Assembly (NCBI GenBank): GCA_015680685.1
Contig: MNCI01001630.1
Coordinates: 1,004,975 to 1,068,974 of the forward strand
Reading direction: 5' to 3'
DNA length: 64,000 bases
Source: Gnetum montanum
Lineage: Eukaryota > Plantae > Gnetophyta
In this document: in pieces, positions 4,301 to 36,982 of the stretch
Layout of the letters: the number at the start of each line of letters is the position of its first letter
Position numbering within the stretch: the stretch's first letter is position 1
Notes under the pieces: generated by a model
Database searches by the model: none
What the model saw: only the letters and a program-made list of their open reading frames with translations
Told to the model about the DNA's origin: nothing
Program-made: the position numbers and the translations under genes

Positions 4301-4325
4301 GGCCCAGATTCTGGGGCCTATAAAT
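4301..4325 (+). promoter_or_regulatory. Probable core promoter of the INT gene (TATA box with adjacent GGCCCA site-II-like motif)
   Basis: CCTATAAATT at 4317-4326, preceded by near-palindromic GGCCCAGATTCTGGGGCC and followed by a CT-rich leader and a GTAAGT donor at 4441. Confidence 0.55.
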
Positions 4326-4440
4326 TAAGCTTGTCTGTTGCTGCAAAACCTTATCTTTTCAGCTGCTCTGCTCTTCTCTTCAAAGAGGTGAACCCATCAC
4401 AGGACTCTGTTCGTTGACAGTTTCTGACTACCAAGGAGGA

Positions 4441-5512
4441 GTAAGTGGCTTTCATCAGTAGTAGTCAGTGCACACTTTGCCTAAGGAGCTCTTACTCTTG
4501 CAGTTAACTGCAGTGTGAAATCTGCTTAATAAGGTTAACAGCCTGAATTGGGATTGTTTGTGCTTAATATGTGTTTCAACAAGCACATCAGTGTGTTGTT
4601 GGTTTGCCTAAATCTATTGTCAGTTTTGGCTTGTTACTGGAATCTTGAGCAAGTGACTTGAGTCTTGGTTGGGTACTTTTGTTAGTCTTTCTTTTAAAGG
4701 TCTGTTTGTTCAGACTGATTAACTGATCCTTTTTAGTTTATGTTTCAGGTTGTAGGTTTCCTTTCTGGGTATGTATCTTGCTCTGGTTCTTGATTACTTG
4801 GCAAAAATTGTTCTGTGATTTGGAATCTGCTTTGTTATCTCTTATTTTGTTTCAAAACTCCTTACCATACTTTTGTGCAGCAGGTTTTAGCGTTTAAGTA
4901 GTATAATACGATTTGTAGCTTTCAGCATGAAGACTCTGCTAAAAGGGAATAGACGGGGTTTAAAGTAGTTAAACAGGACAAAAGGACAAAAATGATATTA
5001 AGCATAAAATAAACACTGTCAATCTACATTTGTGATTCTTAAATCCATGTAAATGCTAACCGGCACTAGTATGATTTAATTAGGACTTTCCTTAATTTTG
5101 CATGAACTTGCACATGTTTGTGACAACCACCCCTGCTATCTACTGGAAGTAATATAATTTGTTCTTTGATTCGGTTTAAAGATAAAAGTTCACGTGCAAT
5201 CCTTACAAAAAAACTAGTGCTAATTTTGTGTATCATTATTCATAATTTGAATATTTAAAGTGCCGACCGTTTTTTATACCAATTTGTTTGTTGTGCAAAT
5301 TTAAGAATTAAACTGGTACTCTTTTATTATGTATCGCTATACATCTGAACCTTCTAATCACCTGAATAATCAGTTGTAGAAATAGCTCCGGGTTTTGGCT
5401 GCCTTTTGCACTTACTAATCATTTGTTTCTCCCTATTGGATAAGGGTAATAAAATAACATGCTCAACTTGCTTCCGGCTCTGACAGTCTTGCCTTTTTAA
5501 TTTTCTATTCAG
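4441..5512 (+). other. Probable 5'-UTR intron (possibly with small internal UTR exons) of the INT gene
   Basis: Donor GGA|GTAAGT at 4441 and acceptor TTTTCTATTCAG| at 5512, 12 nt before the ATG. Extra acceptor/donor-like sites near 4748, 4769 and 4880. Confidence 0.5.
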
Positions 5513-5524
5513 ATATATTGATTG

Positions 5525-8500: not shown

Positions 8501-8531
8501 CAAAGTTGTTGCCTCCTCCAACAAAAACTAA
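5525..8531 (+). CDS. INT2: Inositol/H+ symporter (MFS sugar porter family, INT2/INT4-type), 7 coding exons, 591 aa
   Basis: Exons 5525-5654, 5786-5856, 6000-6335, 6739-6846, 6974-7168, 7279-7695 and 8013-8531. All introns are GT-AG and the exons join in frame (1776 nt). Motifs: MEGG...[82 protein letters not shown]. The Cys-rich loop (CVTCLK..CGFC..PGAC..C..GCPS) is characteristic of INT2/INT4-type proteins. Orthology to INT2 is by resemblance only. Confidence 0.95.
7791..7904 (+). repeat. 39-bp tandem repeat x3 in INT intron 6
   Basis: GTCCAATAGA recurs at 7797, 7836 and 7875. Unit ATGAAATATGTCCAATAGATCATGTGGGTAGGTTTTCAG. Confidence 0.9.
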
Positions 8532-8689
8532 AATTGAAATTGAGGCGTTTAGAAAGTCACCTAATCATCATCATGGTCATTTTAGCCTTGTTGCTTGGAG
8601 CGGTTCTTTTGAGATGTCATATGATTTTATAAAAATTCTCAAAAAGGTTTTTACCTAGTTGCTTGTGATATTATTAGTCTTCTTAAAAA

Positions 8690-9800
8690 AAGGGTAATTT
8701 CGGTTTCTTAAATTCTTTCAAACAAGAGCTTTGGTGGCAAATTAGTTGTTTTAGCATATGATTTTGCCATTATTGGAACTCTCCTCCAGGTAAGGCTACA
8801 ACAAGGGTTTCCTAAAAAAAACTCATTTTGGAAAGGTATTCACTTGGGTAATTAGATTTTTTCTACTCATATGATTATCATTCCTAGACCTCATGTCTTC
8901 AAAAGTATTTGGAGGGTGTAGCATGTATTACACAATTATATAGATTAAACTAATGTTAAGATTTTTTCTAAGCTTTGTCCATGGTGGTTACCAATTTCAC
9001 ATGCTCCTCTTGCTACTATGAATTCTTGGGTGGCTACTTACTGGTTTCAAAAGGAAGTGATTTCTCTTAGTTGTTTACGTCTTGCCAGCTAATAGATTTT
9101 TTTGGGAAATGTTTGATAATTTGTATAGGGCATCTACAACTATGCATCATTGTTTTGATCCAATTTATAATTTTATTCACCACTATTTATAGTTGGATGC
9201 TTCAGTGCAAAGTACTTTTCATGACCTTTGTTGGACTAATGAATTGAAACTTTTACCTTATAAGCTACATGTTCCATTTCAACATTTGCACAACTCTTTA
9301 ATTTTTAATCACTACAATAGGTTTTGGCACAAATAGGAATTAGAACAATTTTGGATGTCCACATTCAAGTGAATATGGAAGCTTCCTACTCTACCTAAAT
9401 TTAACCATTTCTTTAGTATCTACTTCAGCAAGGTTTACCTATTGGCAAACATCTTGAATATCTTGCAGTTCAAACTCCTGTTTGCCCTCTCTATGGAGCT
9501 ATAGATGATTTTGTTCATGTCTTTTGGTAGTGTTCTTTTGCTTAGCATAGTTGGATGTGGGCATGCAAAGTTATACCAAATTGTCAACTATCTCAAGATG
9601 ATGTTATATATATAGATATAGTTTTTGCCTACTACTTCCATGAATTTTAGATTTCTTTATAAGGTTATCATAATTGGAAGCATAGATGCAACATCATTTT
9701 TTTTTAAAAAAATAGAATATTCAAATATTTATCATTTGACTATTATAAAGAAATCTCATATCTTCTACCTTGTTTATTTTCAAATTATATCCCAAGCTCC
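8690..9800 (+). mobile_element. Decayed L1-clade LINE ORF2 3' fragment (zf-RVT region)
   Basis: Frameshifted translation near 9375-9560 reads IWKLPTLPKFNHF...QGLPIGKHL...CPLYGAIDDFVHVFW*CSFA*HSW, resembling the plant L1 zf-RVT pattern. Boundaries are approximate. Confidence 0.5.
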
Positions 9801-12897: not shown

Positions 12898-14930
12898 AAA
12901 ATACAATAGTATAAAATCTAAAGTAACTATTTTTTATTAATCAAATTTCTGATTTCAATGCTAAAATGATAACTACAGGCAATTTCACAGTTAATCTGGT
13001 TACATTTCACTCTATGACACCAAAATGAACAAATTCATAGATGATGTGTTGATTCATGTTGCAAACCTCAAACTTTGCTAGGGAATTTGGCTTTTAAATT
13101 GTGTAGGTGCTCAGCACATGGAGATGGATGCTTGGAATTTCAAGCCTTCTTGCATTTCTATAGCTTGTGTTGGTGTTTTTCCTTCCTGAATCTCCTCGAT
13201 GGATGTTTCGTAAGATAACCATGATAAAAAAGAGACCAGAAGCAACTTCCTCATGTCATGACAATTGTTGCAAGTGAGAGTTACTTATTTGTGTGATGCG
13301 ATGCTTGTTTATCCTTATCATCATATCTATTCTTTGGGAAAGAAAAGGAAGAAGAATCCTTTGCTATAATGTAGAAGTTGCAGCCCCCTAAAGACCTAGA
13401 CAATGAAATAGAGGAACATAGGAATTCTATCCAACAAGAAATAGATATGAATAGGCCTGAAAAGAAAATCTGTTATAGCTAGCTATGGATGGTTAAAGAA
13501 GTTCGATATGCACTGATTGTAGGTTGTGGAATTCAAGTAAGCACCAATACCATTCATTCTAGGCCAAAAACCCTAACTAGGCAATTGTTGTTGTTGTTGT
13601 TTTTAGTTCTTGAGATTATGATGATTTTGTGTAGATCTTCATGTGTGTGTAGATTTGTAAAAAAATGATTGGAATAAATACAATAATGTATTACAGTACG
13701 ATTGTACAAAAATCAGGATTTGTATCTAATAGGTTGGCATTGCTGCTATCTCTAATAACATCTAGGTTGGACATTGTTGGAACCATTCTAAGCATGTACC
13801 TCATAGATAGAACAGGTAGGAGAAAGCTTCTTGTTGCAAGTTTGATGGGAGTTATATTTTCTTTGGCCGTGTTAATAGTTGCTTTTTGTATTACTAGCAA
13901 CAGAGCACCATTTGTAAGCTCTACATAGACAAACAACTTTAAAGGCTTACAATGCCTAGCTTATAATTCTTCTTCCAAACAAGAGGCATCATTATCAACC
14001 TGGACATGTGTAACATGCTTGAAGGAAAATCTTATTTGTGGGTTTTGTGCAATTGCACAAAATCAGGTAAGGAGTTATTGTTGTAAGAAACAAATTTTTT
14101 TATTTTCGAATTTGATTTTTTCCCCAATTGATGCTTGGTCGATTTGATCCACAAAAATTTTTGATTTTTGTTTTTTAAAATTAATTTTTTTCCACTTGAT
14201 ACTTGATCAATTTGCATAGTCTTTCTTTAATATTTGTCCAATAACATGTGGGTAGGCTTTCTCTGAGAATAAAAATTTAGTTTCAATTTCATAGAATGAT
14301 GATGGAAGGCCAAAACGAGATAACTAACAAGTATGTGTAATGTTTGTTGTAAAGCTGATGCCAGGTGCATGCTTGCTGAAAAACAAGATGGTTGAGGAAG
14401 TATGAAAAAGCTCATCAAATACATGGTTTACACAAGGCTACCCAAGTAAATATGGGGCACTGGCTATTGTAGGCTTGGCTGTGTACAACATATTCTATGC
14501 TCCTAGAATTGGAACTCTACCATGGATCATCAATTCTACGATATATCTGTTGAGATTTAGAGGCTTCTATGGAGGCCTGGCTAGCACATGCAATTGGATT
14601 TCCAATTTGATAGTTTCTCAGATATTTCTTACCATTGTCAAATCCATTGGAACCTCCAACACATTCATGGTTTTTGACATCGTTACAGTTATTTCCCTCT
14701 TGTTTGTAAGTATTGTCATTCCTAAAACTAGGGGTCTATCCTTGGAGGAGATTGAAGGCATGTTGCAGGACTGAGTCAGAAGGTTTAGTTTCAAATTTTG
14801 GAAAACTCATGACAAAACCTCTAATACCGATGCCTTTTGTAGATAAAGTTGTTGCCTCCAACGAAAACTAAACTTAAAATTGAGGTGTTTAGGAAGCCCC
14901 CTAATCATCATCATGGTCATCTTAGGCTTG
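12898..14930 (+). pseudogene. 5'-truncated, unprocessed duplicate of the INT gene (part of intron 3, exons 4-7, start of 3' UTR)
   Basis: Collinear with ~6526-8590 including introns. Nonsense changes (e.g. TAG at 13161, 13372, 13926; TGA at 14772). Exons 1-3 are absent. Confidence 0.93.
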
Positions 14931-16231: not shown

Positions 16232-17459
16232 GGAGAGCAGGTAGCAGTTGAACTTCAAAGAATAGGCATCAGAGGTCAAAATTCAGCTCAAAATGTGTCA
16301 CTTCCAATTGGTCACAATGAGGTCACGTTGGGGTCACATTGACAGCGTGAGCTATCAAAATGGCCTGAATCCAAGCACAGAAAGGCTCAAATTAAACATA
16401 CAGGATGTCCTCAAGGTCAGGTAATAGTTGCACTTCAAAAACAAGTCTTAAAGGTAGAATTTTGGCACCAAACGCATCATTTTTGTTCATGCACGCTGAG
16501 GTCATGCTAGCGTGAGCCCAGCGTAAGCACTAGTCACGACCAAGCAAAACATGTTAGACACACACCGAGGACACGCTAGGATGAGATCAATGCATGCTGG
16601 TGACCTTGATGAAGCAAAAACATTTCCAGTAGTAGCCAGGTCATAGATCTAGAAACTCTAAGCTAGCTGAAGGCTAGATCTCTTGTTGTACATTATCAAT
16701 CATTGTAAATTTTTCACATTTTCTTTAAGCTTGTCAAGCTCTTACGCTACAAATTGTACATGAGCGTAAGCTAGCTTGCGCAAGCTAGAACCGATTGTAA
16801 GATATAGTGCATTCAGTCTAGAACGTAGTCTGCCCATGTACACCTGTCACACGATCCATTTTCTCGGATCTCACAGCCATTGACCTCATTCACAAATCCT
16901 ACTTCCGAGCCTAAAAAAATGTATAAATACCCTATTCATTGACATAAACGGGGTTGGCAAAAATTTGGAAAATAAAACCAGCAATCTTGAGCCCAGACGC
17001 ACATGATCCCCAGCGCCTACAAACACCACACATCGGAGCTTAACGTCTAACTTGCAATCCAGACTTGCAACTACGTTTTAACCAGTGCACATTTTGTTAA
17101 TTAATACAATACATTCTTACTTTTACCTTTCGTTGTGCTCTTCTGGTTCATTTTCTCTATTATCCCATTTTATTTCACGCTTCTGTATACATTCTTTGTA
17201 CGTTTACACGCTATATTTCACATTTACATTATGTTGCATTACGCTCTCTGTTTTACATTTCGCAACGATAACCCTAGCATAGGCCATAGCGTACGCTCGG
17301 GGAAGTCCTTGGTTGATCTGTGTGTAGACCATCCAAGGCACTCTACCTTCATGTTTTTCCAGCTTTCCCTTGCATGAAGGCAGGGTCATCTATATCTCTT
17401 CAAAGATCTTTCGACATTCGTTTTCCTCTAGCCTTATGCCGATGATTTCAGACAGTACA
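16232..17459 (+). repeat. 5' LTR of the Tat element (5'-truncated)
   Basis: Aligns with ~34472-35937; TATAAATA at ~16923. Confidence 0.9.
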
Positions 17460-17464
17460 GAAAT

Positions 17465-17481
17465 TGGCGCTAGAAGGAGGG
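17465..17481 (+). other. Primer-binding site, tRNA-Asn type
   Basis: TGGCGCTAGAAGGAGGG, complementary to the 3' end of plant tRNA-Asn(GUU) (...CCCUCCUUCUAGCGCCA), 5 nt after the LTR. Confidence 0.85.
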
Positions 17482-17899: not shown

Positions 17900-20800
17900 A
17901 TGGAATATTCTTGGATCAAAGAAACATTGCCCATTTCTAACCTTAATGCCAAAATCTCAAACCCTGTGACCACAACTGAACCCATAGTTACTGTTGGAGA
18001 GATGAACCCTCAAGGGCCAACTCGTTGGTCACTTATGTTACAAGGTAAGGACCTCACCTATACAATTCTCACATCGGAACAATACAACTTTATCTGCATA
18101 AAGATCCAAGCTAACCTACCCATTGATTGCATGGAAATGGAAGCAAAAAGACATTATGAACTCATCTATAAGGGAGGCCATAACTTTACCCCTTTAGCAT
18201 ATGATGTGATTCCCCTCTTTAAATCCCATCATGAACTCATATCCCAACTCCTCATGGAAAGGAATCAAACCTTGCGGCAACCCACCGTAGAGCCTTAAAA
18301 TGGAGATGAGGAAGATGATTTTGTGGCTCAATCCAAACATGGGAATTCGTACCACACTCTCAGTCCTCATACTTATGCAAACCCGTTATTCCATCCTTTC
18401 ATGGGAAAGACTATGTCTCTTCATGCATTTACAGGCACTCAAGCACCTATCTTTCAATAGGAAGTAGCTACCCTCATTCCTACTTTCCCTATGACCAACA
18501 CCCAATTCAATATGCCCATCCCTGATATTCCTTTGATTACCACTTCACCCTCCCTCTCACAAGGACAATCCCAACAACTCCTCTCTCAAGTTAATATAGG
18601 AGCAACCTTCTGACCCCAAGTAATTGGGATGCCATCCGTGATACCTACTTCTACATCTGTCCATTACATACCACGAGTGCAAATCCAAGGAATGCCCTTC
18701 ACTACTTTAACTCAACAGGTTTAGGATGTTTCCTCACAAATTGTAACTAGGCAGTGGCTAGCACCTATCATTCAACAACATCAACTGGCTCATTATAACA
18801 TACCACCTATTACAATCCCATCCATGAATGTCCCCCAAGTACAACCATCAACAACCCTACAATCCTCTTTCCCACAAACCACAAAACAATCTAACTATTA
18901 TCATGATTAATCTAACCAACTAGCCAGTCCACCTAGTGCCCAAGAATAGGTAGAGGCTAGAAAGATGATGCAAGCATTGACCGATGAGGTGAAGCGCCTC
19001 AAAATTGCAAACACTGAAGAGGTCAAGGCGATGGATTTTTATCAGAATGATCCAATTAGCTCTTCAGTGCCACCATTGACTCTACCAAAAGGAATTTCAT
19101 TGCCACAGTTGACTAAGTATAATGGAGAGGGAGATCCAAATGCTCACCTAGTGACATTCTGATTAGAGTATCTATTACTTCAGGCCTAGCCTCATGCAAT
19201 CTTGCGTGTATTTTCCATGTCCTTAACTGGAAGGACCTTAGACTGGTACCAAGCCCTACCGTGTAACTCCATATCCTCTCTAGAGGATTTGTTACATCAA
19301 TTCGTTACCAATTTTAAATATAACCTGAAGCCTAAGGCCAAGCTAGACATTCTAATCCAAATAAAACAAGCGCCACTAGAGCCCATGCAAAAATTCATCC
19401 AAAGATGGAGCACTGCTCTTAACGAACTTCACGAGCCTATCCTAGAAACGTATTTACTTACAATCCTCAAAGGTGCCATGAATGATTTCGTTAAGTCAAA
19501 ACTATATTATTTGAACGCTTGCACTTTGAGTCAGGCATTTTTCCAAATCAAAAACATAGAAGNCGCACTTTGAGTCAGGCATTTTTCCAAATCAAAAACA
19601 TAGAAGAGGTAGCATAGACAAGTCATGACCCAACTTACCTAACTTTCAAAAGCCAACATATGAAGAAAGATAAAGACACGTCTAAAACAATAGTCGTAGA
19701 AGTGGCAGAGACATTTCGACCCAATAATGCAGGGAAGAAAGGGAAACAACCCACTGCCCCCACTAGTCATGAAAGAACCGCTCCTGCACTTACACCTGAA
19801 TCCTCCTTTATCCAAACTACTAACACGAGTCATACTCGTACCTTCAAACGAAAAGACCCTACCCAGTACACACCCTTACCCATGAAGCCTTCACAACTAC
19901 TGGACCAACTTCTAAAGGCTGGGTTGATTCAACATAAGTAGATGTCTCCTGCAGCATCTCAAAAACACGACCGATACTATGAATTGGTTAAAAACCCAAT
20001 GTTGGTAATGTCTAATGAACCCCCTGTTCCAAGAGGTTTTAGGTTAGATAGATTCTGTGAGTATCACCAATGATGTGGACATGGAACCGACTATTTCTTT
20101 ACCCTAAAACAAGACATACAACGTATGATTGATAAGGGTGAGATAGTCTTTGATGAAGCCAACCTAGTGAGACCTCAAAATCAGTCTATGGGGGTCTACA
20201 AAGACCCTCTTAACACCAAAGAATCACCTTATGTGATTAACACCATCCACAATGAACAAGACATCCCATGAAGATGTTTTGTGATTTGTGTGCTTGCTGA
20301 AACTATATCTACACTAACACCTCCACAAGCTCCTTTTGCCACACATACACCTCCTATGCCACGAAAACCATTTATCATCTGAGTACACCCAGCAATTGCA
20401 ATAGCAAACATGCCATTGTAAACCTGACCTATTCGATTTGTAATCCAAGTGCCGAAACACTTCGATGTGCTTCCCCCAACAATTCCCCCATGACTATCGT
20501 GAGAACGCCTCACCAAAATATTGACCAGAGAACGTTTGGCAAAAGAATGTCATGGTCATGAGTTGGGACTGCCAAAACCCACACCATTGAGTGCTATCCC
20601 TATGGTTCTAGTTACTAATCAGCCTAGCACTAGTTGTGAAGACAAGAACTCGGGAGTGTCTAGTGTCCCAAATTCAACAGCTACAACTAATAACACAAAA
20701 ACTCTTCTGTGAGAGATAAAAATGTTAGGTCAAATGGATCAAGTCTCAACAGATAAAAACATGCCAAATAGCAAAGACTTGGCCAGTGCCCTGACCTAGG

Positions 20801-21696
20801 TTACATAGGCCTTAAAACAAAAGAACACCTCTCTAAGTATATATGACCTAGTAATGACCTCCTTGGTACATCAGGAAGCCCTAGTGTGTATGTTGACTTC
20901 AATCCCTGTTAGTGAAAATCTTCCTACGAATGAATCATCTATTTATGCCGTATTGTCTCCACATCAAGAATTGAGGTCCACATCTCTAGGATTTCATGTC
21001 AATGACATTAAACAAGATGAAAAAATGGGAGAGGTCATGACCGCGCCTATGTTTATAATGATACAAGTTAACCAATTTAAGATACATAGGATGCATGTTA
21101 ATGACAGGGCAGAAAAAAATGTAATACCTTTCTTGTTCATTGAACGACTAGGCCTCCCAGAACAAATACGACCAATGACAACATCTTTCTTGAAATCCTT
21201 TAGTGGTTCTTGTGTCGTGGTGAAAGGCATGATTACCTTGGATTTCATAGAATGGGACCGGTTCTCCACATCGGCCGAATTCATAGTCGTTGATGAGATT
21301 CCGAGGTTCAATATAATTTTGGGACGACCTTGGTTAGCTCAATTAAAAGCCGTATCATCACCAATCCATCAAGAAATTCACCTACCCTATGAGGGCGGTG
21401 AAATAGTCACACACAGGGATGCTGCAACATCACTTACTTCCTCTAACATAGGAACGAACCAGGGGTCATAAGTTGAACTCTCTGAACCTAAGCAAGACAC
21501 CACTAGTGAAACCCTAGGCATAAGTCAATCTCCAACCTGTGATCTTCCTAAAATAGAAGAAGCATCGGAGGATGCAAACATAGGGGCCATTCCCACGGAT
21601 GTCTCTTGGTCAGAACTACCCTTTGACGTATCCAATGAGGGGGATGGTGAGTACAAAATCATGCATACACATCCCATCCTTCACAAAAAATTGTGA
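17900..21696 (+). pseudogene. Tat gag-protease, interrupted by stops
   Basis: KYNGEGDPNAHL, FSMSLTGRTLDWY, IKQAPLEPMQKFIQRW (Retrotrans_gag); CEYHQ-CGH knuckle at ~20055; protease region IHRMHVNDRAEKNVI...FNIILGRPWL...SSPIHQEI. The frame continues to TGA at 21694-21696. Confidence 0.85.
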
Positions 21697-21726
21697 AAAC
21701 TAAAGAAACTAAGATGAACCATCATG

Positions 21727-21909
21727 CGTCTGGAATGACGTTAAACTACCAAATGTCCATAATGACGTTAAACTAGCCATGGTCAGAAATGGCCGATTCT
21801 TTTAAGATTCACTAAAACAACTATAGTCTCTTCCCTTTCTTTGACAAAGATGTAATTGTCCATCATGAATTTAAACTAATACACATGGCCCGAAATGGCT
21901 TTAAACTAG
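21727..21909 (+). ncRNA. Cluster of coremin/Box-1-like hairpin-TTAAACTA RNA motifs (candidate XRN-resistant elements)
   Basis: CGTC-TGGAAT-GACG-TTAAACTAC (21727-21749), TGTC-CATAAT-GACG-TTAAACTAG (21754-21776), TGTC-CATCAT-GAAT-TTAAACTAA (21857-21879), GGCC-CGAAAT-GGCT-TTAAACTAG (21887-21909). Function is inferred. Confidence 0.55.
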
Positions 21910-22216
21910 AGCACAGTACACCATTAGTTTACCGAAACTTCGCTACGTCATTATCGTTTACATTTTGCAAGTTACAGTTTTCATTTATTTTATTTTTACC
22001 AGACATGATTCTAGTTTACTTTCATGTTCACAAATAAACTTGAAAAAGTAAGACAAAATATATAAATATATGTAATACAGAATGTTAACATAGTAATACG
22101 ATGATGACATATTGCACCATGATCATGTTGCATCTGTCCTTACACATTCCAAAAACAACGAAACCAGCCAAAAAACACCAAAAAACTGAAAAAAATGACA
22201 AGACTAACAAGCCAAA

Positions 22217-25200
22217 TTATGCATTAGTATTAGGAGGGGGCTGGTCCGCAAACTCCTCTATGTCATCAGCACTCATCCCACTAGGGCCAGCCTCACCACC
22301 ATGTCCCTATAAAAGAAAAACAACAAAATAAGTAAACATAAACAAATAGATTAAAAGTACAAAATACTAAAAAAAAGGGGGGATGATCAAAAGCAATAAA
22401 AAAATGAAAGAATAAAACACTCACAGGTGGGGAGGACCTGAGATTAGTTTCTAGGCACCTTAGAATCTCTTCTTCGGACACGCATGCCCAGTCTTTCTCA
22501 AGTTTGAGGTTGATATTGGCTAAGGTTTTATCCTTGTCCACTGAAGACTAGGAAGGGTGTTCAAGAGAAAACGTACTTGTTGAAGCCTCCCTAGAGGTAG
22601 TGGTAATGGATCTCTTAGGGGACCCCTCCACTTCTATACACTCAAAAAACTTGTCATAGGAAGAGTGCAAGCTTAACCCCTCCACGAACATCTCCGACCG
22701 GCGACTCTCAACTGATTCCTCCTTCAACCATTTTTTGTATTGGTGCTTATGATCTTTCTAATCCTGGTCCCATTTACATACTTTGGATGCAAAGGACTTC
22801 CAATCATGGCACTTCCTATTCAACAAATCCATCTAGGCCCTTTGTTCGTCCAGTTCCCAAATCGCCTACACCTTGCTATTCAAACCTGTCCAATAATGTG
22901 CATAGGTGATCTCGGATGTATGCCAGGTACTATCACCAGCCAATCTAGTAGAGGCAAAATCATAATGGGCTTGCAAGTCATTCCTCTCCTCTATCACCTT
23001 CACCAAATTTTCTTTTAATGTTTGAACTTCAAGCCATAAGTGTTCAATTGAGCACCTGCAGGTCCATAGAGACTTGGCATTAGGAACAACACAACCTGAA
23101 ACTGCATCATAAATCCCTCTTGGGATTTGCTCAATATCTTTGGGTAATTTTGGGAGACCATCAATATGGATAGCCCCGGAAGGACTCCATTGAAGCTTTG
23201 CACCTACAAGTACAAAAAACACATATGAGCTAATAAGAGATCTCTAATAGATGCAAAAGCATAATGAATTTAGGCACTTGATATAAAGTACCCACCTAAT
23301 TCAGGATGCGCTTATTGTAGACACGCAAAAACATCATTGATGATGCCCTTAACAAACTCCACCTTATTGGGCATCTTAGACCACGGCCTCAATTGACCAG
23401 TGGATGTTGAATCTACATGGGAAGGCACCTCGACTGGGGCCTCTAACTCTGACACATCCACCTGAGATGCATCTGCCTCAAGTGCTTCAGCATCCATGTC
23501 TAATGTTAAGAAGAGTCATGAAAATTAAAAAAATGTATAAAGCTAAGAAGTACAAAATGTAGATCAAACTAACAAGACATATCGAGCGGCCCTTTGCTGG
23601 TCAGCTTAGGTGGATCACCAAGCTGTAAAGACCCATTAAAGAAACCATCAAAAACACATTTCTCCTCACTTGAATGCTTAAGGTCATCTAAAGCCTCAGC
23701 AAGTTTCACCCCCATGGTATCCATTTCATCCTCTTCTCGTAAGATGGGAATACCCACAACTACCTCTTCTCTCGTTTCCTCCTCTTCATCACGCCTGATA
23801 ACCGTTTCAGGCTCACCCATCAGAGCTAATTCTTCCCTTTACCTCTCAGGGGTATCCTCTGTTAGCACCAATAAATCTAAGGTTAGCATGACATAATAGG
23901 TATGTGTATTTAAGTAAGCAAATAAATTCAAAAAGTGGTAAAAAACACTTAAAGAAAAAAAAAAATCTTACCCACTCCTAGCAAGATGAATTGAATCTTC
24001 TTTGCCTTCAATAGTCTTGCCTCTGTAGCAGGTTCTCTCAAACGCTCAGCCCTTTTCACCTTAGCCTTGGCCTTCCCGAAAATCTCCTGAATCAAGCGCT
24101 CAGCTCTCCTAACAGTTGTGTGCAGTTTAGGTGGTTCCAACCCCAAGCTATCACGTGAATGGTGGGAACGACTGGCTGCATCCCCTGTTGTGATAGAGAC
24201 TGATTCCTTGATGCCTTCAGGTGGATCTTGGGATCTAGTGGTGTTAAATAGATGATAGATCTAGGGGTGAGAAAACTATGAACAATTCCTTAACACATAA
24301 TGGTTATCTCCATAGACAACTAAGAACTCAGCAAAGCTACGGAGATAGCCCATGAAAAAGGCAAAGGTAAAGTGGTATTTAGCATCAACCTTGGAACATA
24401 GCCTGATAACCTTTTCATGAAGACCTAATACAAGGAACTGTGCCAAATTGTAGTGCATACTAGTCTCCAAGACTGAGCGCATAACACATGCAGACTCAAT
24501 CCCAAGAATTCTTGCTTGAGAAAGAGAATTAGGGAATGCTCGTGCTCTAAAGAGCGGGTAAAGAAAATTTACCTCCATCAAGCGAGTATCAGCTTGCATG
24601 GTGAAGCCCTTAGGACCCCATGGTACACCTAGCCAGTCTTCAAGTTCCTTGATCACACGACCTTCTCTAGTTGCTCTATCCACTACCACCTTAGCACCAT
24701 CCGTTGGTACATCGAAGAGATTGGAAAAGAATTCGGCAGTCAGGTGGAAAGACACCTTAACTCCATGAACTCATGTAGTAAAATAGGAGACATCATTGTT
24801 AAAAGAGTCAACGATGGAAACCATTTCGGTCATGGGAACATTAGGAGTCAAGGTAGTAAATAGGTCCATCAAGCTTGCATTGGTAAGACAACTCATGATT
24901 TTTTCAGGTGCCTTCTTGTGTAGCCATCATTGTGACTCCTCTTTCTCTCCAAACTTCATAAAGAGAGTGGCCTCAGTGCGCCCGGATATGATGGTAACCT
25001 CATCAAGGGGAACAGCTGCTGTAGAAAAGACACAGGAGACATTGAACAAAAATTGAAAATATGATAAGTAATGATGTAACAAAAATGAAAACCAAGCCTA
25101 GAACACAACCATTTACCATTAGCAAATGGAGTAGGCACACTTGCTGCAAGATCAATTGTTTGAGGAAAAACAGGTCCATCAGGAGACCAATCCTCATGTA

Positions 25201-27269: not shown

Positions 27270-27618
27270 TTGTTGCCAACTCTACTCATGCTCTGTACCG
27301 TGGTAGCAACGTCGCACATGCCACTCACGCTATGTACCATGGTCACGCTTCTTCTTACTCATGCTGCTCATGCTATGGAAGTTTACTCACGCTAGCCATG
27401 CCGTCTCTCCAAACAAAGACACAAATGACATTCCTTCACTTTTAAGCTTCTTTTAACCCCCTCCTTATTCATCCATTTCATTTTATTTTATTTTTCATCC
27501 ATGTTATGATTACCTTGTGCCTTATTTTTGTTTTATTTTTCATTATGATTATATTTTGTTGCAGCACTATATACACCTATGTATAACACAAAAAAAAATA
27601 TAAAGAAAGGATATCACT

Positions 27619-27671
27619 AGCCCTATATGGCCTAAAACTGCTATGGATGGCCCAGTATGGCCTAAAACTGC
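27619..27671 (+). ncRNA. Two coremin-like hairpin-TAAAACTG motifs upstream of the RT ORF
   Basis: AGCC-CTATAT-GGCC-TAAAACTGC and GGCC-CAGTAT-GGCC-TAAAACTGC. Confidence 0.45.
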
Positions 27672-27790
27672 CATTACATTCCATAATTTTATTAGGCTAA
27701 TCACGTGAAACTCATCTACGTTTAAAAACCTTCTTCATCAAGAAAATGTTGCTCACTTCGCTCCCAGTTTAAATTGGCAGGAACAAGCAT

Positions 27791-30700
27791 ATGGATAGCA
27801 AGAACCTCTTTTCAACGTTGTTTATCAATGGACCTCATGGGCCCATAAAAAGAGCGATTAATCTAGGATCCTTAGATCTAGAATCATCTACTTACGCTAA
27901 CTTCATGGCATCCACTCAAGAAACATCAGACTGCCCCGAGGGTAGGACTAAAACTTTGGACGTAGAAGCCAACAACATCACTGAAGATCCCCTCGTTGAA
28001 GTCCCCATTACTATGTCTAGTGGCGAAGTTAAAACATTAAAATTGAGTACTCTACTAAATCCACAACTTGCCATTGACATTACACAAGTGCTCAAGAACA
28101 ACATCAAAACATTCGCTTGGTCATATATTGATATGCCAGGATTGGACCCTCAAATCATCCAGCATAACATCATCCTCGATGAAAAACTTAGACTAGTAAA
28201 GCAAAAAGCACGAAAGGTTAAACCTGAGGTAGTGTTGGCAGTTCATAATGAAATCATGAAGCTCTACCAAGCCAGTTTCATCTGAGCTATTGACTATGCT
28301 GATTGGGTATCCAACATTGTTGTAGTCCCCAAGAAGAACGACAGCATTCGCATATGCATTGATTTCCATGACCTCAACATAGCCACTATAAAGGATGACT
28401 TCTCACTACCTAGTATTGATCAAGTCATTAACTCAACTATTGGGCATGCCTTGTTATCCTTTATGGATAGCTTCTCAGGATACAACCAAATCAGGATCAA
28501 CCTAGAACACTAACTCAGGACAACGTTCATGACACCTTGGGGCACGTTCTGTTATACAATGATGCCATTCGGTCTAAAAAATGCAGGTGCTACATATTAG
28601 CAAGTAATGAAATATATATTTAGCTATTATATGCTTGATTCTCTCAATGATTATGTAGAAGACATCGCAATCAAGTCAAAAATAACCGAGCAACACGCAA
28701 AGGACTTAGACCTGATACTCAAACGTTACCTCAAATATGACCTTAGACTTAACCCAAAGAAATGCATCTTTGGAGTCAAAATGGGAAAAATGCTTGGCTT
28801 CATAGTCTCAGAAATAGGGATACGAGTAGACCCCAATAAGGTTATAGCAATAACCAGCATGCAACTACCTAGGAACCTTACCGAATTACGTGGTCTACAA
28901 GGTAGACTACAATTCATCAGATGCTTTATCGCAAAACTCATAGATAAGCTGAAACCCATGCAGCACTTACAACGAAAGAATGCCCATTTTCAATGGACTC
29001 AAAATTGCCAAGAAGCCTTTGAGAACATAAAAATAGAACTGGCTCAACTGCCGATAGTTCATCCCCCACAAAGCAATAAACCTTTTTACATCTACCTCAC
29101 GACATCTGATTTATTTATTGTGTCTATCGTTGTCAAAAATGAGAAGATGGAATCGAGATCCCCGTTTACTATTTAAGCCACGCCTTAGTTGCCTATCAAC
29201 AATGATACAACGACATGGAAAGGTCATGTCTTGCCCTTGTATTTTCCTTGAAAAAGTGGCGACATTACCTCTTCCACAATCAAGTCAATATCATTTGCAA
29301 AGACAACGTGCTTCGAGCTATCGCCAACAACATCTATGAATAAAGTGGGATAGCTAGATGGAAGGTAATGATTGTAGAGTTTGACCTACCCTATGTAGCT
29401 CAATCCTCCACTAAAGGTCAAGTAGTAGTCAACCAATTGATCACTTCATCAACACAAGATCAAGTGATGATCAATCCCGAATTCCCAGATGAGAATATTA
29501 ACAGCATAGACATAGTGCCCAATAACTATGATATAATCCTGTACTTCAATGGAGCATCCACCTCCCGAGGAGGAAGTGCTGTAGTTGTCATAATGTATCC
29601 CTCTAGAGAAATTCACCCTTTGCCTATCGACTCAACTTCCCTTGTACCAACAACATGGAAGAGTACGAAGGTCTTCTTAGAGGTCTTAGAGCAGCACTAA
29701 CTTTGGGAATCACTTATCTTGTAGTTCGAGGCGACTCATAGTTATTACTCAATCAAGTCATAGAGTTTTATGCATGCAAAGCTTCTCATTTGTAACCATA
29801 CTGTGACCTGACTAAACACTTGCTAAAACAATTGATCAACGTAGATGTGGAACATATTCCTAGAAACAAAAATACCATTGCCGACGCACTTGCTACACTA
29901 GCCTTAAATGTGACACCTGAGATGTTCCATGTGTTGCCTAGTTCCATAACAAATTGTGCCAAACCCATAACTGATGCTCCCAAAGAAATACCCATAGCGT
30001 CCATTAGCACTACATAAGTAATAGAATGGTATGATGACATAAAAGAGTACCTTCAACAAGGCGAACCACCACAACACTTGACAAGTGCCCAAAAGGAGGC
30101 GGTGTGAAAACACTCTAAAAATATGCATTAATAGGAGACACATTGTGTCATAGATCCTATGAAGGCATTCTATTGATGTGCATCAGTAGCGTTGATAGCC
30201 AAACAATCGTGGAACAGGTTCACGAAGGACTTTGCGGAGGGCATATAACACCCAAAGCAATGTAAACTAAAATTAGACATTTAGGCTACTACTGGCCACA
30301 CATGGAGTATGATTGCTCCTCTAGGGTCAAGAAATGTAACATTTTCCAAAGGCACAGTAACTTAATACATGTGCCACCTAATGAGTTGCATACGACACAA
30401 ATCACATGGAAGGTGATGATTGCAGAGTTTGACCTACGCTATGTAGCTCAATCCTCCACTAAAGGTCAAGTAGTAGTCAACCAATTGATCACTTCACCAA
30501 CACAAGATCAAGCGATGATCAATCCCGAATTCCCTGATGAGAATATTAACAACATAGACACAGTGCCCGATAACTACGATGCAATCTTGTACTTCGATGG
30601 AGCATCCACCTCCCGAGGAGGAAGTGTTGTAGCTATCATAATGTATCCCTCTAGAGAAATTCACCCTTTGCCTATCAACTCAACTTCCCTTGTACCAACA

Positions 30701-32316
30701 ATGTGGAAGAGCACAAAGGTCTTCTTAGAGGTCTTAGAGCAGCACTAACTTTGGGAATCACATGTCTTGTAGTTTGAGGCAACTTACAGTTAGTACTTAA
30801 TCAAGTCACAAAGGTTTATGCATGCAAAGCTTCTCATTTGCAACCATACTATGACCTAACTAAACACTTGCTAAAATAATTGATCAACATAGATGTGCAA
30901 CATATTCCTAGAAATGACAATACCATTGCTAATGAACTTGCTACACTAGCCTTAAACGTGACACCTGAGATGTTCCATGCATTGCATAGTTCCATAAAAA
31001 ATTGTGCCAAACCCATAACCGATGCTCTCGATGAAATACCCATAGCATCCATTAGCACTACACAAGCAATAGAATGGTATGATGACATAAAAGAGTACCT
31101 TCAATAAGGCAAATCGCCACAACACTTGACATGTGCCCAAAAGGATGCGGTGCAAAAATGCTCTTGGAAATATGCATTAATTGGAGACACATTGTGTCAT
31201 AGATCATATGAAGGCATTCTGTTGATGTGCGTTAGTAGCGTTGACAGCCAAACAATCATGGAACAGGTTCACGAAGGACTTTGTGGAGGGAATATAGCAC
31301 CCAAAGCAATGGCAACGAAAATTAGACATTTAGGCTACTACTGGCAACACATGGAGTACGATTGCTCCTCCAAGGTTAAGAAATGTAATATTTTCCCAAG
31401 GCATAGTAAGCTAATACATGTGCCACCCAATGAGTTGCATATGACAAAAATCACATGGTCATTCTAGAAATGGGGATTAGACATCATTGGGTCGATAACA
31501 TCGCCATCTTCAACTAGACATAGCTTCATGATCACTGCAATTGAATATTTCACAAAATGGGTAGAAGCTATCCCCCTTAGGAAGACCACATCTAAACATG
31601 TTTGCAATTTCATATTAGAAAACATCATGACCCGCTTTGGTATCCCAATGATCATAGTTACCGTTAATGGGCCACAGTTCAGTAGTGCGGATACTAAAAG
31701 CTTCTGTGAAAGCCTAGGTATTAAAAACTCATTTTCATCACCATATTACCCACAGAGAAATGGTTAAGCAAAGTCTATGAATAAAATGACCATCATGGTG
31801 CTCAAAAAGATGTTGAATCAAAGCAAGAGATGATGGCACGAGTAGTTAATCTATGCATTATGGGCATATCGAACAACGCATCGAACGTCCACAGGTAAAA
31901 CACCATATAGCCTTGTATACGAGTTTGAAGTTGTGTTACCTTTGGAGTTACAGGTTCCCTCATTGCAGATAACACTCTCCAGCCTCCTTGATGAAAGCCA
32001 GAACAACGAGCTATGCATTGCTAGCCTTGACTCAGTGGAGGAAGAAAGGGTACGAGTGCTTAACCAAATTGAATGGTACCAGAGACAACAACAGCAACGT
32101 CATCAACACGATCCACATAAGCAGCTGATCAAGGAAGGTGACCTAGTTCTCAAGGTGGTCCGTGAACACTCAGAAAAATTCTCAACTAACTGGGAAGGGC
32201 CTTACCTAGTCATCAAGGCATATGATAATAGGGCATTCAAACTCATCGACATGGATGGAAATGAGTTCGCCAATCCTACAAATCATGTGTACCTGAAACC
32301 ATTCTACGTAGGATGA
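27791..32316 (+). pseudogene. Tat pol: RT, RNase H, archaeal-type RNase H (duplicated) and integrase, with stops and frameshifts
   Basis: FAWSYIDMPGLDP, WVSNIVVVPKK, MPFGLKNAGATY, DYVEDI (decayed YVDD), LNPKKCIFG, ILYF(N/D)GAS...GDS...HIPRNKNTIADALA, VHEGLCGG...C..C, EYFTKWVEAIPL, SSPYYPQRNG, NWEGPY...N..YLKPFY*. Confidence 0.93.
29358..31454 (+). repeat. Tandem duplication (~1048/1049 bp units) of aRH plus integrase zinc finger
   Basis: Unit 1 is 29358-30405 and unit 2 is 30406-31454. ATGG microhomology at 29358, 30406 and 31455. Confidence 0.92.
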
Positions 32317-32333
32317 GCTGAAGGTACATCTCG

Positions 32334-32637
32334 ATCCTAGCATCACGACCTAAAAATGATACCACAGAATAGTCCTGGAGCTATGACTTAAAACTAGCAC
32401 CACAGAATGTCCTGGCGTCATGATAGTAAATTGACACCACAGAGCTTTGTCTGGTATGACACTAAACTGCCATGCTTGTCCACCAGAGTCCACTAAGACT
32501 ATAAACTAGCTTGCCTCTTCATAGTCTACCACAACTATAAACTAGCATTGCACCGTCCGCTATGATGCTAAACTAGCACTGTCCAAACGGTTATGACATA
32601 AAACTAACCCACAATAGTCTACTAAGACTATAAATTG
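32334..32637 (+). ncRNA. Array of about nine coremin-like hairpin-TAAACT motifs at the start of the Tat 3' UTR
   Basis: Consensus GTC-N(6-11)-GAC-NN-(T/A)AAACT(A/G) repeated with variable spacers, starting 18 nt after the integrase stop. Confidence 0.55.
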
Positions 32638-33843
32638 ATGACATCATTGATGACCAGGCACAAATTGAAAAGATGTGTTGCTGCAATTAGTTGTACATGT
32701 TCCAAAAAGACTTGCTACATGATTCATCTCATGGACCTTCATAAAACTGATGTTGTTCAAAGATTTTGTTTGCCTTGAAACTTCACATGATGGCTCCATT
32801 TCATCGGCTACATTCAAGTTTAAAGTGTTTAGCTAACTGAGTCATTTTTAGTTTTCTTGTCTCCTTGGAGTTGTTTTTTCAGGATGACATGCTTGAGGTG
32901 TTCGTGCACAGATACACTTCATCATGACGACAAGGTATCACATTCTTCCTGACGCTTCGCAACTGGGTTAATCAATCTGCTCATAAGTACATTTCCAACT
33001 CCTGATGCATTCCCTATTCCTCATCATGTTCTCCTTAACTTACTTAGTTACAATCCCTGGATACAATATTCATCCCAAAACTCTAAATGCATAGTTGCAC
33101 ATTGTAACTCTCTAAGTAGTTGCAATGCAAAGCATAGAACCCAGTACATGACACAAAATGCCAGTGCTCAAACACAAGCACAGAAAAAAATGAAAGCTTG
33201 TTAAAAAGAAAAAAGAAAAATAAAATAAAAGAAAAGAAAAGGATAAAAGAAAGAAAAACAAAGGAAAAGAAGAAACAAACAACAAAAAGAAAGAAAAAGA
33301 ACAAAAAGGTCAAAGAGCAAAATGCATGGAAAAGGTCTTCATGACCCAGTTGACATCATAGACTAAAGACCATTGGCTCTTCTTAAACAAGCCCTAGGCG
33401 AGAAGGTAATTATCTTGGAAAAACACTTGTGTCTCAAATGATCATGTTGCACATCATCGTGTGGCTTTGGCTGTTTATAACGGGCTCCCTTAAATATGAC
33501 ACGAGGGTCCCGTTTCCCTAAAGAATGCACCTCCTATGCCTTGGTTCCAAGTCTGCTATACATTGGCTGTTGACAACAACCAAAACTAGCTCATTCACAT
33601 GAGAGCATTCCTCTCCCGCAGTTTGAACAACGACACCCTTTGGTCAATCCCTAATCCTCTAGTTACAACCTTCTTTCCTTAAACTAAATTTTCCTCAATC
33701 CAATGTACTTTTGAACATGGTGCGATGACATCCAAATAGGGGCCAAAGGATAATGCTTGGTACTTGGTTGTTCATGGTTTTTTGTGCTTCTTTGTCGATG
33801 CCTCTCGGGTGGCTTCCTCCAAACATCAACAAAGAGGGACCAA

Positions 33844-35937
33844 TGAAATACAACAAAATTTCAGCTCAACACTTTGAGATAAGAATAATTTAGAGCCTCT
33901 TGAGTCTTGGGAGGAAAAAATTTGACTAAGGCATGGAACTCACACTCAACTTGTCAAGCTAGCTTACCCACACTCAGCTTGCTCATGTTGTCAAGCTAAC
34001 TAGACCTCAACATGACCAACCATGACAACTTCCAAACCAAGTCTAAACAGTTTGAATTCGAGCATGTGGACTCCCCTTGAGCTTCACTGATGTTCATTAT
34101 AGTCCTCAACCTCCAAAACCTCGAAGATTAAGCTCAAAATCACATGATTTGTTTACTCATGCCCAGGTCACGCTGGGGTCATGCTAAGGTCACGCTAACA
34201 ACATGAGCATAGCGTGACCAAACGAAAATAGATCAAATTAAGCAATCCCAAGCATAATTTTCAGCATCAACTCAACCCCAAAGGACAGGCAATATTTTTA
34301 CTTGTTCGCAGGCTCCAAAAAATCAAAGGTTGGGTATGAAACACGACATTTTTACTTGGTCACGCTGGGGTAATGCCGAGCTCATGCTGATAGCATGAGC
34401 CTAGCGTGACTTGTCGAAAGTCACTCAAATCAACACAAGAACAGACTCAAATTTAGCGTCTAGGCCACCCTAGAGAGCAGGCAGTAGTTACACTTCAAAG
34501 AACAGGCATCAGAGGTCGAAATTTAGCTCAAAATATGTCATTTCCAGTTGGTCATGCTAAGGTCACGCTGGGGTCACACTGAGCTCATGTTGACAGCATG
34601 AACCTAGCGTGAGCTTCCAAAATGGCCCAAATCCAAGCACAGACAAGCTCAAATTAAATATACAAGACATCCTCAAGAGTAGGCAATAGTTGCACTTCAA
34701 AGAACAGGTGTCAAAGGTTGAAATTCATCTTAAAATGTGTCACTTCTAGTTGGTCATGCTGAGGTCATGCTGAGCTCACGTTGACAATGTGAACCCATCA
34801 TGAGCTGCCAAAATGGCTCAAATCCAAGCACAGATAGGCTAAAATTAAATAAATAGGATGTCCTCAAGGTCAGGTAACAGTTGCACTTCAAACAAAAGTC
34901 TTAAAGGTAGAATTTTTGCACAAAACACATCATTTTTGGTCATGCCCGCTGTGGTCATGCTGGGGTCATGTTGAGGTCACACTGGCAGCATGAGCCCAAC
35001 ATGAGCACTAGTCATGACCAAGCAAAACATGTCAGACACACACCGAGGACATGCCAGGATGAGATCAATGCATGCTGGTGATCTTGATGAAGCAAAAACA
35101 TTTCCAGCAGCAGCCAGGTCATAGATCCTAAAATTATAAGCGAGTTGGAGGCTAGATCTCTTATTGTACATTATCAATCATTGTAAAATTTTCACATTTT
35201 CTTTAAGCTTGTCAAGCTCTTATGCTACAAATTGTACATGAGTGTAAGCCAACTTGCACAAGCTAGAATCGATTATAAGATATAGTGCATCTAGTCTAGA
35301 ACATAGTCTGCCCATGTACACCTGTCACACTATCTGTTTTTCTCGGATCTCATAGTCATTGACCTCATTCGCAAATCCTACTTCCAAGCCTAGAAAAATG
35401 TATAAATACCTTGTTCATTGACATAAAAGGGGTTGGCAAAAATTTGGAAAAGAAAACCAGCAATCCTAAGCCTGGACACATGTGATCCCTAGCACCTACA
35501 AACACCACACATCAGAGCTTAACATCTGACTTGCAATCCAGACTTGCAACTACGTTTTGACCGGTGCACATTTTGTTAATTAATATAATACAGTTTCACT
35601 TTTGCCTTCCATTGTGCTGTTTTGGTTCATTGTCTCTGTTATCCCGTTTTATTGCATGCTTCTACATACATTTTTTGTACGTTTACACACTATATTTCAC
35701 ATTTACATTATGTTGCATTATGCTCTTTGTTTTACATTTCGCGACGATAACCCCAGTGCAGGCCATAGCGTATGCTCAGGGAAGTCCTTGGTTGATCTGC
35801 ATGTAGACCATCCAAGTCACTCTGCCTCCATTTTTTTGTAGCTTGCCCTTGCACAAAGGCAGGGTCATCTGTATCTCTCCAGAGATCTTCAGTGTTCATT
35901 TTCCTCCAGCCTTACGTCGATGATTTCAGACAGTACA
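33844..35937 (+). repeat. 3' LTR of the Tat element (~2.1 kb) with internal ~190-200 bp repeats
   Basis: Follows PPT-like AAAGAGGGACCAA (33831-33843), starts TG and ends GTACA. Internal units recur at ~34481, ~34683 and ~34873. The 5' boundary is inferred from the PPT. Confidence 0.8.
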
Positions 35938-36982
35938 GACACTATTGTGGTGATGGTGATCCACCTTCTCCTCCATCCTCTTCATTTGATTCTGAAAATT
36001 TTTCATCATCTGTTGGTTCTCATAGAAGCCACCATCAAAATCATCGTGATGAAGATAATCAATAGGACAACAATGACCATGAAGGCCACCAAGACTGAAG
36101 GGGTTACTAAAACCATCATCGATGTCATTGATGCAGTGATGATGATGAACCTCTAATGGCAACACGAAGCATGCTCAACATTGTAGAGGTAGTAAAGATC
36201 ACAACCAAGCATGTGAAAGATAGTATGATTAATCACTTAGACATGAATAATATCCCAAGATTTGAGGGGGGATACAACTCTAATCCATAGACACATTTAC
36301 AAGCTTTCCATGATGCCTATGCCTTACAAAACATAGAAAATGAGTGGTAGAAACTCAATCTCTTTCCTAGGACACTTATCAAGGAAGTTGAAAGTTTGTA
36401 CTAGTCCTTGGAGCTAGAATCTATCCATAGATGGAGTACCATGTTGGAGCTATTCAACAAAAAATATTATTCAAGGATGGAGCCAAGGAACACATGAACC
36501 CTTGGATGATGCTATGGATAAATATTATTTACTCTTACATCGATGCCCTAGCCATGGTTATTGTTAGAGGGAACAACTTCGCCACATCATAGATGGGCTT
36601 AGGAAAGAAACTGGAAGAACTCTTGGGATGTATTCCTAAGGGAGACTATCTAAACTAAGATATCATTAGATGAAAAGGTTGATAGAGTAGGTAGCAAAAG
36701 AATAAGGTGAGTTGCGAAAGAGGGAAAGTATAGAAGAATATAATAGGGACCCTTCCATCATGAAATAGGAGGTCCAATTTTGTGATGAGGAGTCACCACT
36801 CGATGAAGTGGTGAATAGGAAAACTTTGCCCATCCAAAAATTTGTGTCTAATATTTTGGAAAAGGTTGTTAAATTATGGGACTCTTTGGATGAAAAATTC
36901 CAAATTACTATCAAGGTTGTTGAAGAATCCAAAGAGAAAAATAGTGATCATCACTGCAAGAGATGAAAAGAAGCTAAACGTG

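Follow-up and report, generated by a model that had tools for sequence, protein, structure and literature searches.

A 19.7-kb Tat (Ogre-like) Ty3/gypsy LTR retrotransposon of Gnetum montanum carried three tandem arrays of a short motif that very probably represents the coremin fold. The feature is real and the motif is known; it is the setting that is new. We read the arrays as probable blocks to 5'-3' exoribonucleases at the start of each 3' UTR of the element (probability about 0.6). Xrn-resistant RNAs (xrRNAs) have been described as tools of RNA viruses, and with the coremin consensus present behind both stop codons of this element and behind the pol gene of unrelated gypsy elements, a similar defence of retrotransposons against cytoplasmic RNA decay is suggested. 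The arrays also make an open question testable, namely that of the pol-adjacent tandem repeats of Tat elements, whose 'unknown origin and function' is mentioned in the accessible text of PMC11963269; the units are about 22 nt long, and a standard in vitro assay exists. Natural variants in the outer stem pair, the AAACTG tail and the long loops provide covariation data for a fold that lacks a solved structure in the coremin papers cited below. The sequence-only reading, which had first pointed to one of the arrays, knew of no such element among LTR retrotransposons, and in agreement with it the literature searched yielded no report of a coremin or xrRNA in a retrotransposon, although subscription journals or supplements may hide one.

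Structure of the host element

The window (the whole 64,000-nt stretch of DNA that was analyzed) contained the following parts of the element.

16234..17461, + strand: 5' LTR, aligned part, with an approximate 5' edge (85% BLAST identity to 34676-35939)
17464..17480, + strand: primer-binding site, with its TGG start directly after the LTR end; presumably for tRNA Asn
19190..19570, + strand: gag fragment of a stop-broken gene (PF03732, E 2.4e-6)
20809..21696, + strand: protease-region frame with one internal stop, from translation, ending with TGA 21694-21696
21647..21648, + strand: putative splice donor, GT of GATG/GTGAGT, read from the sequence by eye
22306..24770, - strand: remnants of an antisense extra ORF with a Transposase_32/ATHILA-like lead (Atlas first match 0.92)
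27773..32316, + strand: broken pol (RT, RNase H, probable archaeal-type RNase H, integrase), with stop TGA 32314-32316
27779..27780, + strand: putative splice acceptor, TTGGCAG/G, read by eye, with another candidate near 27564
34676..35939, + strand: 3' LTR, aligned part (BLAST match to the 5' LTR)

The K2P distance between the LTRs was 0.137 over 1227 aligned nt; this copy of the element is old, with broken genes. Pfam identified RVT_1, RT_RNaseH_2, Integrase_H2C2 and rve in pol, and the integrase tail showed 31-48% identity with the 120 matches listed, the named ones among them being plant (flowering-plant) retrotransposon-type proteins. A LYF(D/N)GAS-like candidate for the archaeal-type RNase H (aRH) was recognized by eye between RH and integrase, at 29344-29697 and in the duplicate of that region; Pfam and PDB searches gave no support for it. 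The protease identity of the frame 20809..21696 was likewise assigned by eye, with no Pfam match to a protease in this frame and no matches in a homologue search with the protease fragment. Among the 40 family variants listed, 9 of the 14 up to 21646 fell on third codon positions. Pol contained a 1.05-kb tandem duplication (29358-31458, 91% identity), and a 44-nt exact duplication flanking an N in gag (19521-19606) is probably an assembly artefact. Elsewhere in the window, sugar-transporter (PF00083) gene fragments at 5982-8590 and 12898-14930 formed a duplicated block about 6.4 kb apart.

Gag-protease and RT-RH-INT occupied separate ORFs, with a spacer of about 6 kb between protease and RT; judged by its sequence, the element is Ogre-like in order and in this split. 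It resembled Ogre, as described in the accessible text of PMC6317226, in its separate gag-protease and RT-RH-INT frames, large size and extra ORF, and further, as judged by eye, in the probable aRH between RH and integrase and the splice-like sites around the spacer. Whereas the Ogre spacer, a partly spliced intron, has a mean length of 274 bp according to the same text, that of the present element is about 6 kb long with an antisense extra ORF; moreover, the available parts of PMC6317226 describe no coremin. The Transposase_32/ATHILA-like family of the extra ORF was carried by 25% of the Atlas cluster members. A viral origin of the 6-kb spacer, which we considered, was not supported.

Three arrays of coremin-type units

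The units were arranged as follows.

21727..21909, + strand: array 1, four coremin-type hexaloop units and one tail-less hairpin (direct reading, pattern scans, covariance model)
27619..27670, + strand: array 2, two units with GCC/GGC stems at 27620 and 27650 (relaxed scan, covariance model)
32371..32637, + strand: array 3, eight units (relaxed scan, covariance model)

Array 1 was the one proposed in the sequence-only reading, and its four units and one partial unit were all located where claimed, the first of them 32 nt after the TGA (about 30 nt had been given). Unit 21728 reads GTC TGGAAT GAC GTTAAACTAC, unit 21755 has the loop CATAAT, and unit 21888 reads GCC CGAAAT GGC; the partial unit from 21782 has the hairpin without the AAACTA tail. 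The description of four hairpin copies with stems of 3-4 bp held for 21728, 21755 and 21888; it failed for unit 21858, whose GTC/GAA stem has one pair broken in this genomic copy and is thus short of a full 3 bp here. In 200 dinucleotide shuffles of the window, searched on both strands, 0.03 strict YGNNAD units were expected per 64-kb window, against two seen, and four TTAAACTA within 200 nt occurred in none of the 200 shuffles.

The single array of the earlier description was therefore real, and two further arrays (27620-27670 and 32372-32637) had been missed. Array 2 lies about 100 nt upstream of the pol frame, in an intergenic position behind no stop. Array 3 begins 56 nt past the pol stop, with units starting at 32372, 32409, 32449, 32488, 32524, 32555, 32581 and 32617; five of these have 6-nt loops and three have 10-11-nt loops. 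In total, the element contained 15 units in three arrays, all on the sense strand and none antisense. When a three-pair unit pattern was applied to the element, 12 units were found on the + strand and 0 on the - strand (shuffle mean 0.16, maximum 2 in 300 shuffles), a pattern that was shaped after units had been seen. The motif thus has the strand and position bias foreseen for it, with all units in sense orientation, behind both stops here and, in four unrelated gypsy elements, behind that of pol.

A covariance model trained on 78 units from short IMG/VR contigs (viral-database units only) gave 14 matches in the window at E up to 5, of which 13 were inside the three arrays and six had E<0.01; since the training pattern also fits the window, this test is not fully independent. 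The model detected no motif in another gag-bearing family in the window, and an Rfam search of 19000-25000 returned no match.

Agreement with the coremin rules

According to the accessible text of PMC6546385 and PMC10520033, the coremin (xrRNA-C) begins with a hairpin (hp1) of 3-4 bp, in which pairing counts more than sequence and whose loop is YGAD or YGNNAD; an AACUA spacer, which is essential, follows, and directly after it a second, likewise required hairpin. Its hexaloop form (YGNNAD) occurs in beny-, cucumo-, umbra-, enamo-, hypo- and chrysoviruses. The 6-nt loop, which the sequence-only reading had taken for a difference from the viral motif, is no difference, because YGNNAD hexaloop coremins are published as Xrn1-resistant (PMC10520033, in its available parts). 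The same parts report that the loop CGAAAU is resistant, that UG loops are partly resistant and that CA loops are non-resistant; unit 21888 carries exactly the CGAAAU loop tested there. As they stand, 4 of the 10 hexaloop units (21728, 21888, 32449 and 32555) fitted YGNNAD, and the number rises to 7 of 10 if CA is counted as CG decay; A was at loop position 5 in all 10. The AACUA spacer core stood at a fixed distance from hp1 in all four tailed units of array 1 and in 6 of the 10 hexaloop units overall. The remaining hexaloop tails, AAACTG in three units and AAATTG in one, are variants outside the published resistance tests, as are the 10-11-nt loops.

The outer stem pair, which was constrained by no search pattern, was Watson-Crick in 11 of the 15 units and included all four types (4.0 expected, p 0.00025). 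In the alignment of stems, 90.9% of the cells were paired and 8 cells were changed on both sides, while pairing dropped to 11-50% in slid stem registers; the covariation score of 11 hexaloop units was matched by 1 of 500 shuffles. Because the units share ancestry, these p-values overstate independence. The middle stem pair was U-A or C-G, and the pair next outside the outer one was at chance level without covariation, as in the viral units. The claim that structure rather than sequence is conserved, made earlier from a single compensatory stem change, was borne out by the covarying outer pair, with its four Watson-Crick types in 11 of 15 units of shared ancestry. A second hairpin of -2 kcal/mol or lower was predicted for 7 of 15 units, against 21% in shuffles; it was present after 21728 and 21755 and absent after 21888. 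For the RNA-virus units the number was also 7 of 15, no better than in their own shuffles.

The likeness to viral coremins was thus closer than had been claimed, since the YGNNAD loop, the AACUA spacer with its length and the covarying 4-bp stem match the published rules. The element and the viruses have in common a GTC/GAC stem of 3-4 bp with a covarying outer pair, the YGNNAD loop and an N3-AAACTA tail at equal spacing, and also the sense orientation, the position just past stops, the tandem copies and the GCC/GGC stem variant. In contrast to viral coremins, the units of the element belong to an LTR retrotransposon integrated in DNA and form three arrays of up to eight units, with AAACTG tails, 10-11-nt loops, CG decay and an irregular second hairpin. 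The array motif is, in our judgment, very probably the coremin fold.

Other copies in the host and RNA reads

Contigs of four DNA runs, which belonged to three studies and bore four organism labels, served to compare this copy with other host copies. The other copies had G at 21759 in 59-71% of the depth, where the loop of this copy reads CA, A at 21857 in 99-100%, C at 21869 in 84-87% and C at 21900 in 77-90%, and each of these majority bases is closer to the motif than the base of this copy. The present copy being old and broken, several of its units have decayed at their CG. Joints between contigs indicated that the unit number varies among host copies.

The summed contig depth at 21728-21799 was 18,000-108,000, against 150-8,800 in the adjoining flanks. 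This depth over array 1 is no copy number, and many families and a satellite are not separable by it; the excess over the flanks indicates that the unit is common to far more sequence than this family. The coding stretch 21584-21637, just 5' of the putative donor, also had a DNA depth about 10 times that of its neighbours and is therefore probably conserved across families.

The depth over array 1 bears on a reading at the DNA level, in which the units would be dyad-symmetric protein-binding sites (containing TGAC) or neutral Tat tandem repeats resembling coremin by convergence, and the high depth may reflect a derived satellite. Pol-adjacent tandem arrays are indeed common and family-specific in Retand and have no known function according to the accessible text of PMC11963269, and one family described below has its arrays inside probable LTRs, where enhancers lie. 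Compared by description, the arrays of the present element resemble those of Retand in their short units adjoining pol and in a copy number that varies within the family; in contrast to the family-specific Retand arrays (PMC11963269, as far as its available text goes), the unit found here is covarying and common to viruses and distant retrotransposons. The outer pair changes on both sides among four pair types, which a protein-binding dyad would not need. The tail stands on one side only and keeps to one strand, and the loop obeys YGNNAD, a rule established by experiment; RNA viruses, which lack any DNA stage, retain the same unit. We consider this reading quite improbable.

RNA reads were taken from four runs of two studies, with 562-2356 reads on the element that were mostly less than 90% alike. 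None of these four low-depth runs showed a pile-up of read starts at any array, in libraries unsuited to 5'-P ends; because such libraries cannot show 5'-phosphate ends, this result neither supports nor refutes stalling. RNA depth in the bin 32064-32724 exceeded that of the preceding bin in all four runs; the reads being mostly less than 90% alike and the motif common to many copies, we do not count this depth as evidence of a subgenomic RNA. In two poly(A) libraries, 55 (X15) and 34 (X16) reads at 21760-21794 continued on both sides into one other sequence, which holds a further CG-loop unit and is an expressed RNA of another element, a host UTR or an RNA virus. An antisense spliced RNA with the joint 22305-22424 and CT..AC ends was detected in the region of the extra ORF (three reads in X12, one in X13). 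A gag-pol splice joint was absent among the three joints listed for the four runs.

The splice sites matter for a nuclear role, in which the arrays would block XRN2/XRN3-type nucleases and thereby stabilize an excised 6-kb intron, or allow full-length genomic RNA to be made by preventing torpedo termination where the transcript is cleaved prematurely. The putative intron (donor 21647 and acceptor 27780, by eye) has array 1 just inside its 5' end and array 2 just inside its 3' end, array 2 is behind no stop, and LTR-type arrays of other elements lie about 30-40 nt inside the LTR. Against these positions stand array 3 and the chromovirus units, all outside introns, and the RNA runs, in which no splicing of this kind was seen at their low depth. 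A mainly nuclear role thus appears very unlikely.

Proposed function of the arrays

The stop-proximal position shared with RNA viruses, together with the behaviour of the coremin of BNYVV, leads us to read the arrays as probable exoribonuclease blocks. As described in the accessible text of PMC5869530, the BNYVV coremin, acted on by Xrn1 or XRN4, gives rise to a non-coding RNA that inhibits Xrn1 in vitro; motifs with the present consensus halt Xrn1 in vitro and are also a barrier to scanning ribosomes (PMC10520033, available parts). In active ancestors of the element, each array unit would have folded into a small pseudoknot that stalls the host 5'-3' exoribonuclease (XRN4/Xrn1) where each 3' UTR begins. 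If the protease-RT stretch is a partly spliced intron, as in Ogre, the unspliced (gag-protease) and spliced (pol) mRNAs would each have an array just past their own stop. A decapped or decaying mRNA would then be degraded as far as the array; the uncapped 3' RNAs left over would be stable, extend to the 3' LTR and might in addition sequester the nuclease or the silencing machinery. The tandem units would provide redundancy, and a downstream unit could act as the second hairpin of the preceding one. At the level of sequence, the earlier interpretation as a virus-like xrRNA is supported.

Flavivirus xrRNAs (as sfRNA) and the tombusvirid xrRNA-LT, frequently as tandem elements past the stop, also leave stable 3' fragments of decaying RNA (PMC6546385, PMC10520033). 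The fragments proposed here would be similar, whereas the flavivirus and tombusvirid elements are different, larger folds. Loss of xrn4 left the expression, copy number and siRNAs of EVD unchanged according to the accessible text of PMC8892269, so that XRN4 need not limit every plant retrotransposon.

The same fold might instead act mainly on ribosomes and surveillance, by stopping post-termination scanning of 40S subunits, reinitiation or the entry of UPF1 into long 3' UTRs, and thereby shield the mRNA from nonsense-mediated decay. Retroviral stability elements just past the gag stop are a precedent for such a role; the 3' UTR behind the gag-protease stop is about 14 kb long, and the arrays stand at the very start of each UTR. 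Against scanning ribosomes, moreover, hexaloop coremins are at least as effective a block as the tetraloop form (PMC10520033, in the parts available). On the other side, compact chromoviruses such as L214 (see below) also carry the motif, and RNA viruses in which Xrn stalling was demonstrated have it in the same place close to the stop. As the main role we consider this unlikely; blocks to nucleases and effects on ribosomes are compatible and do not exclude each other.

The motif in other retrotransposons and in viruses

A two-unit pattern matched at least 125 stretches (about 200 estimated) in metagenome contigs, with full flanks for the first 80. A Pfam search with 92 ORFs from the first 79 loci revealed five RNA viruses, two loci with a circovirus-type capsid and six with retrotransposon domains, and tblastn with retrotransposon proteins from the loci gave matches in 9 of 124 loci; most of the remaining pattern loci fell into no class. 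Since the relatives were found by pattern, these counts are no measure of the share of elements carrying the motif.

Four distinct chromodomain gypsy elements had sense units at or just past the pol stop.

L214 (= L219, the same element), sense: unit 11 nt past the pol stop; frames intact
L180, sense: unit spanning the pol stop
L247, sense: decayed unit 2 nt past the pol stop, others about 100 nt further
L197, sense: unit 86 nt past the pol stop

YGNNAD was fitted by 6 of the 8 chromovirus units, and those of L214 directly precede a purine-rich tract. The nearest Atlas clusters of L197 were Tf2-like and most often from Basidiomycota, which suggests that the chromodomain elements are probably fungal. 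The motif thus follows the genes of a plant element and of unrelated, probably fungal ones, and on this comparison these elements likely shield their RNA tail as viruses do.

Eight related, mostly CpG-poor loci (L171, L190, L198, L205, L227, L234, L238 and L243) contained 4-11 units each, the first of them about 30-40 nt downstream of a polypurine tract with TG behind it, so that these arrays probably lie in the U3 of an LTR. Their outer pair was Watson-Crick in 83 of 88 cases, against 57.8 expected. A copia element (L182) had three units at 87-188 in the integrase-RT linker of pol, two of them with GCC/GGC stems; like array 2, these units sit just before RT. We took L239, where a copia RT runs antisense to the motif, for a nested insertion and L237/L196 for fold-back contigs, and counted none of them as support.

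The units inside the copia pol of L182 and across the stop of L180 would suit a recoding function, in which array 1 drives frameshifting or read-through from gag-protease into pol, and a coremin stimulates -1 frameshifting in vitro (PMC10321173, accessible text). In the Gnetum element, a slippery heptamer was absent within 22 nt upstream of 14 of the 15 units, and the single sequence flagged was the tail of the unit before; array 1 lies 32 nt past the stop with pol 6 kb away, and no ORF of at least 150 aa lies behind array 3. With no heptamer at 14 of 15 units and no overlapping downstream ORF, -1 frameshifting by array 1 was rejected, and recoding in general is highly improbable.

A set of Tat contigs was the only gypsy set gathered independently of the pattern. 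It represents one other Tat family, on short contigs in prokaryote assemblies, and no unit was found in the 53-417 nt that follow the integrase match in any of the six contigs with flank (0/6). These contigs (L293, L295-L299), in named bacterial assemblies and with a plant-type Tat integrase, are probably contamination; they share a common, different predicted stem-loop past the stop. Protein-based locus searches in viral contigs returned two distant loci or none.

We place at about even odds the broader reading that plant Tat elements, chromodomain gypsy elements and probably other LTR lineages independently position tandem coremins behind stops or in U3, yielding decay-resistant non-coding RNAs that counter host decay or silencing, as a recurrent and overlooked feature. 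If this is true, some unexplained Tat tandem arrays would have a function, and very many Xrn-resistant motifs would be scattered through host genomes and 3' UTRs.

Two loci had arrays downstream of cellular-looking genes: in L170 the units began about 850 nt past the stop of a dynein heavy chain gene, and in L216 an array lay about 120 nt past the stop of a PHD/SET protein gene. Both may be transposon-derived or host 3' UTR elements. In the short viral contigs with a long upstream ORF, the unit was within 100 nt of the stop in 39 of 43 (median 13; 48 examined), and the GCC/GGC stem variant also occurred in viral contigs. The exact hexaloop coremin was common between genes of phage-sized IMG/VR contigs of 20-300 kb (L006, L016, L018, L047, L058, L062 and others), with about 310 stretches estimated in IMG/VR, RNA-virus-sized contigs included; no Rfam family covered the hexaloop motif in the 10 phage loci tested. 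In L047 and L058, the hexaloop coremin adjoined a tRNA. Finally, L207 and L245 had two units just past a circovirus-type capsid ORF, and the motif is therefore probably also present in ssDNA viruses.
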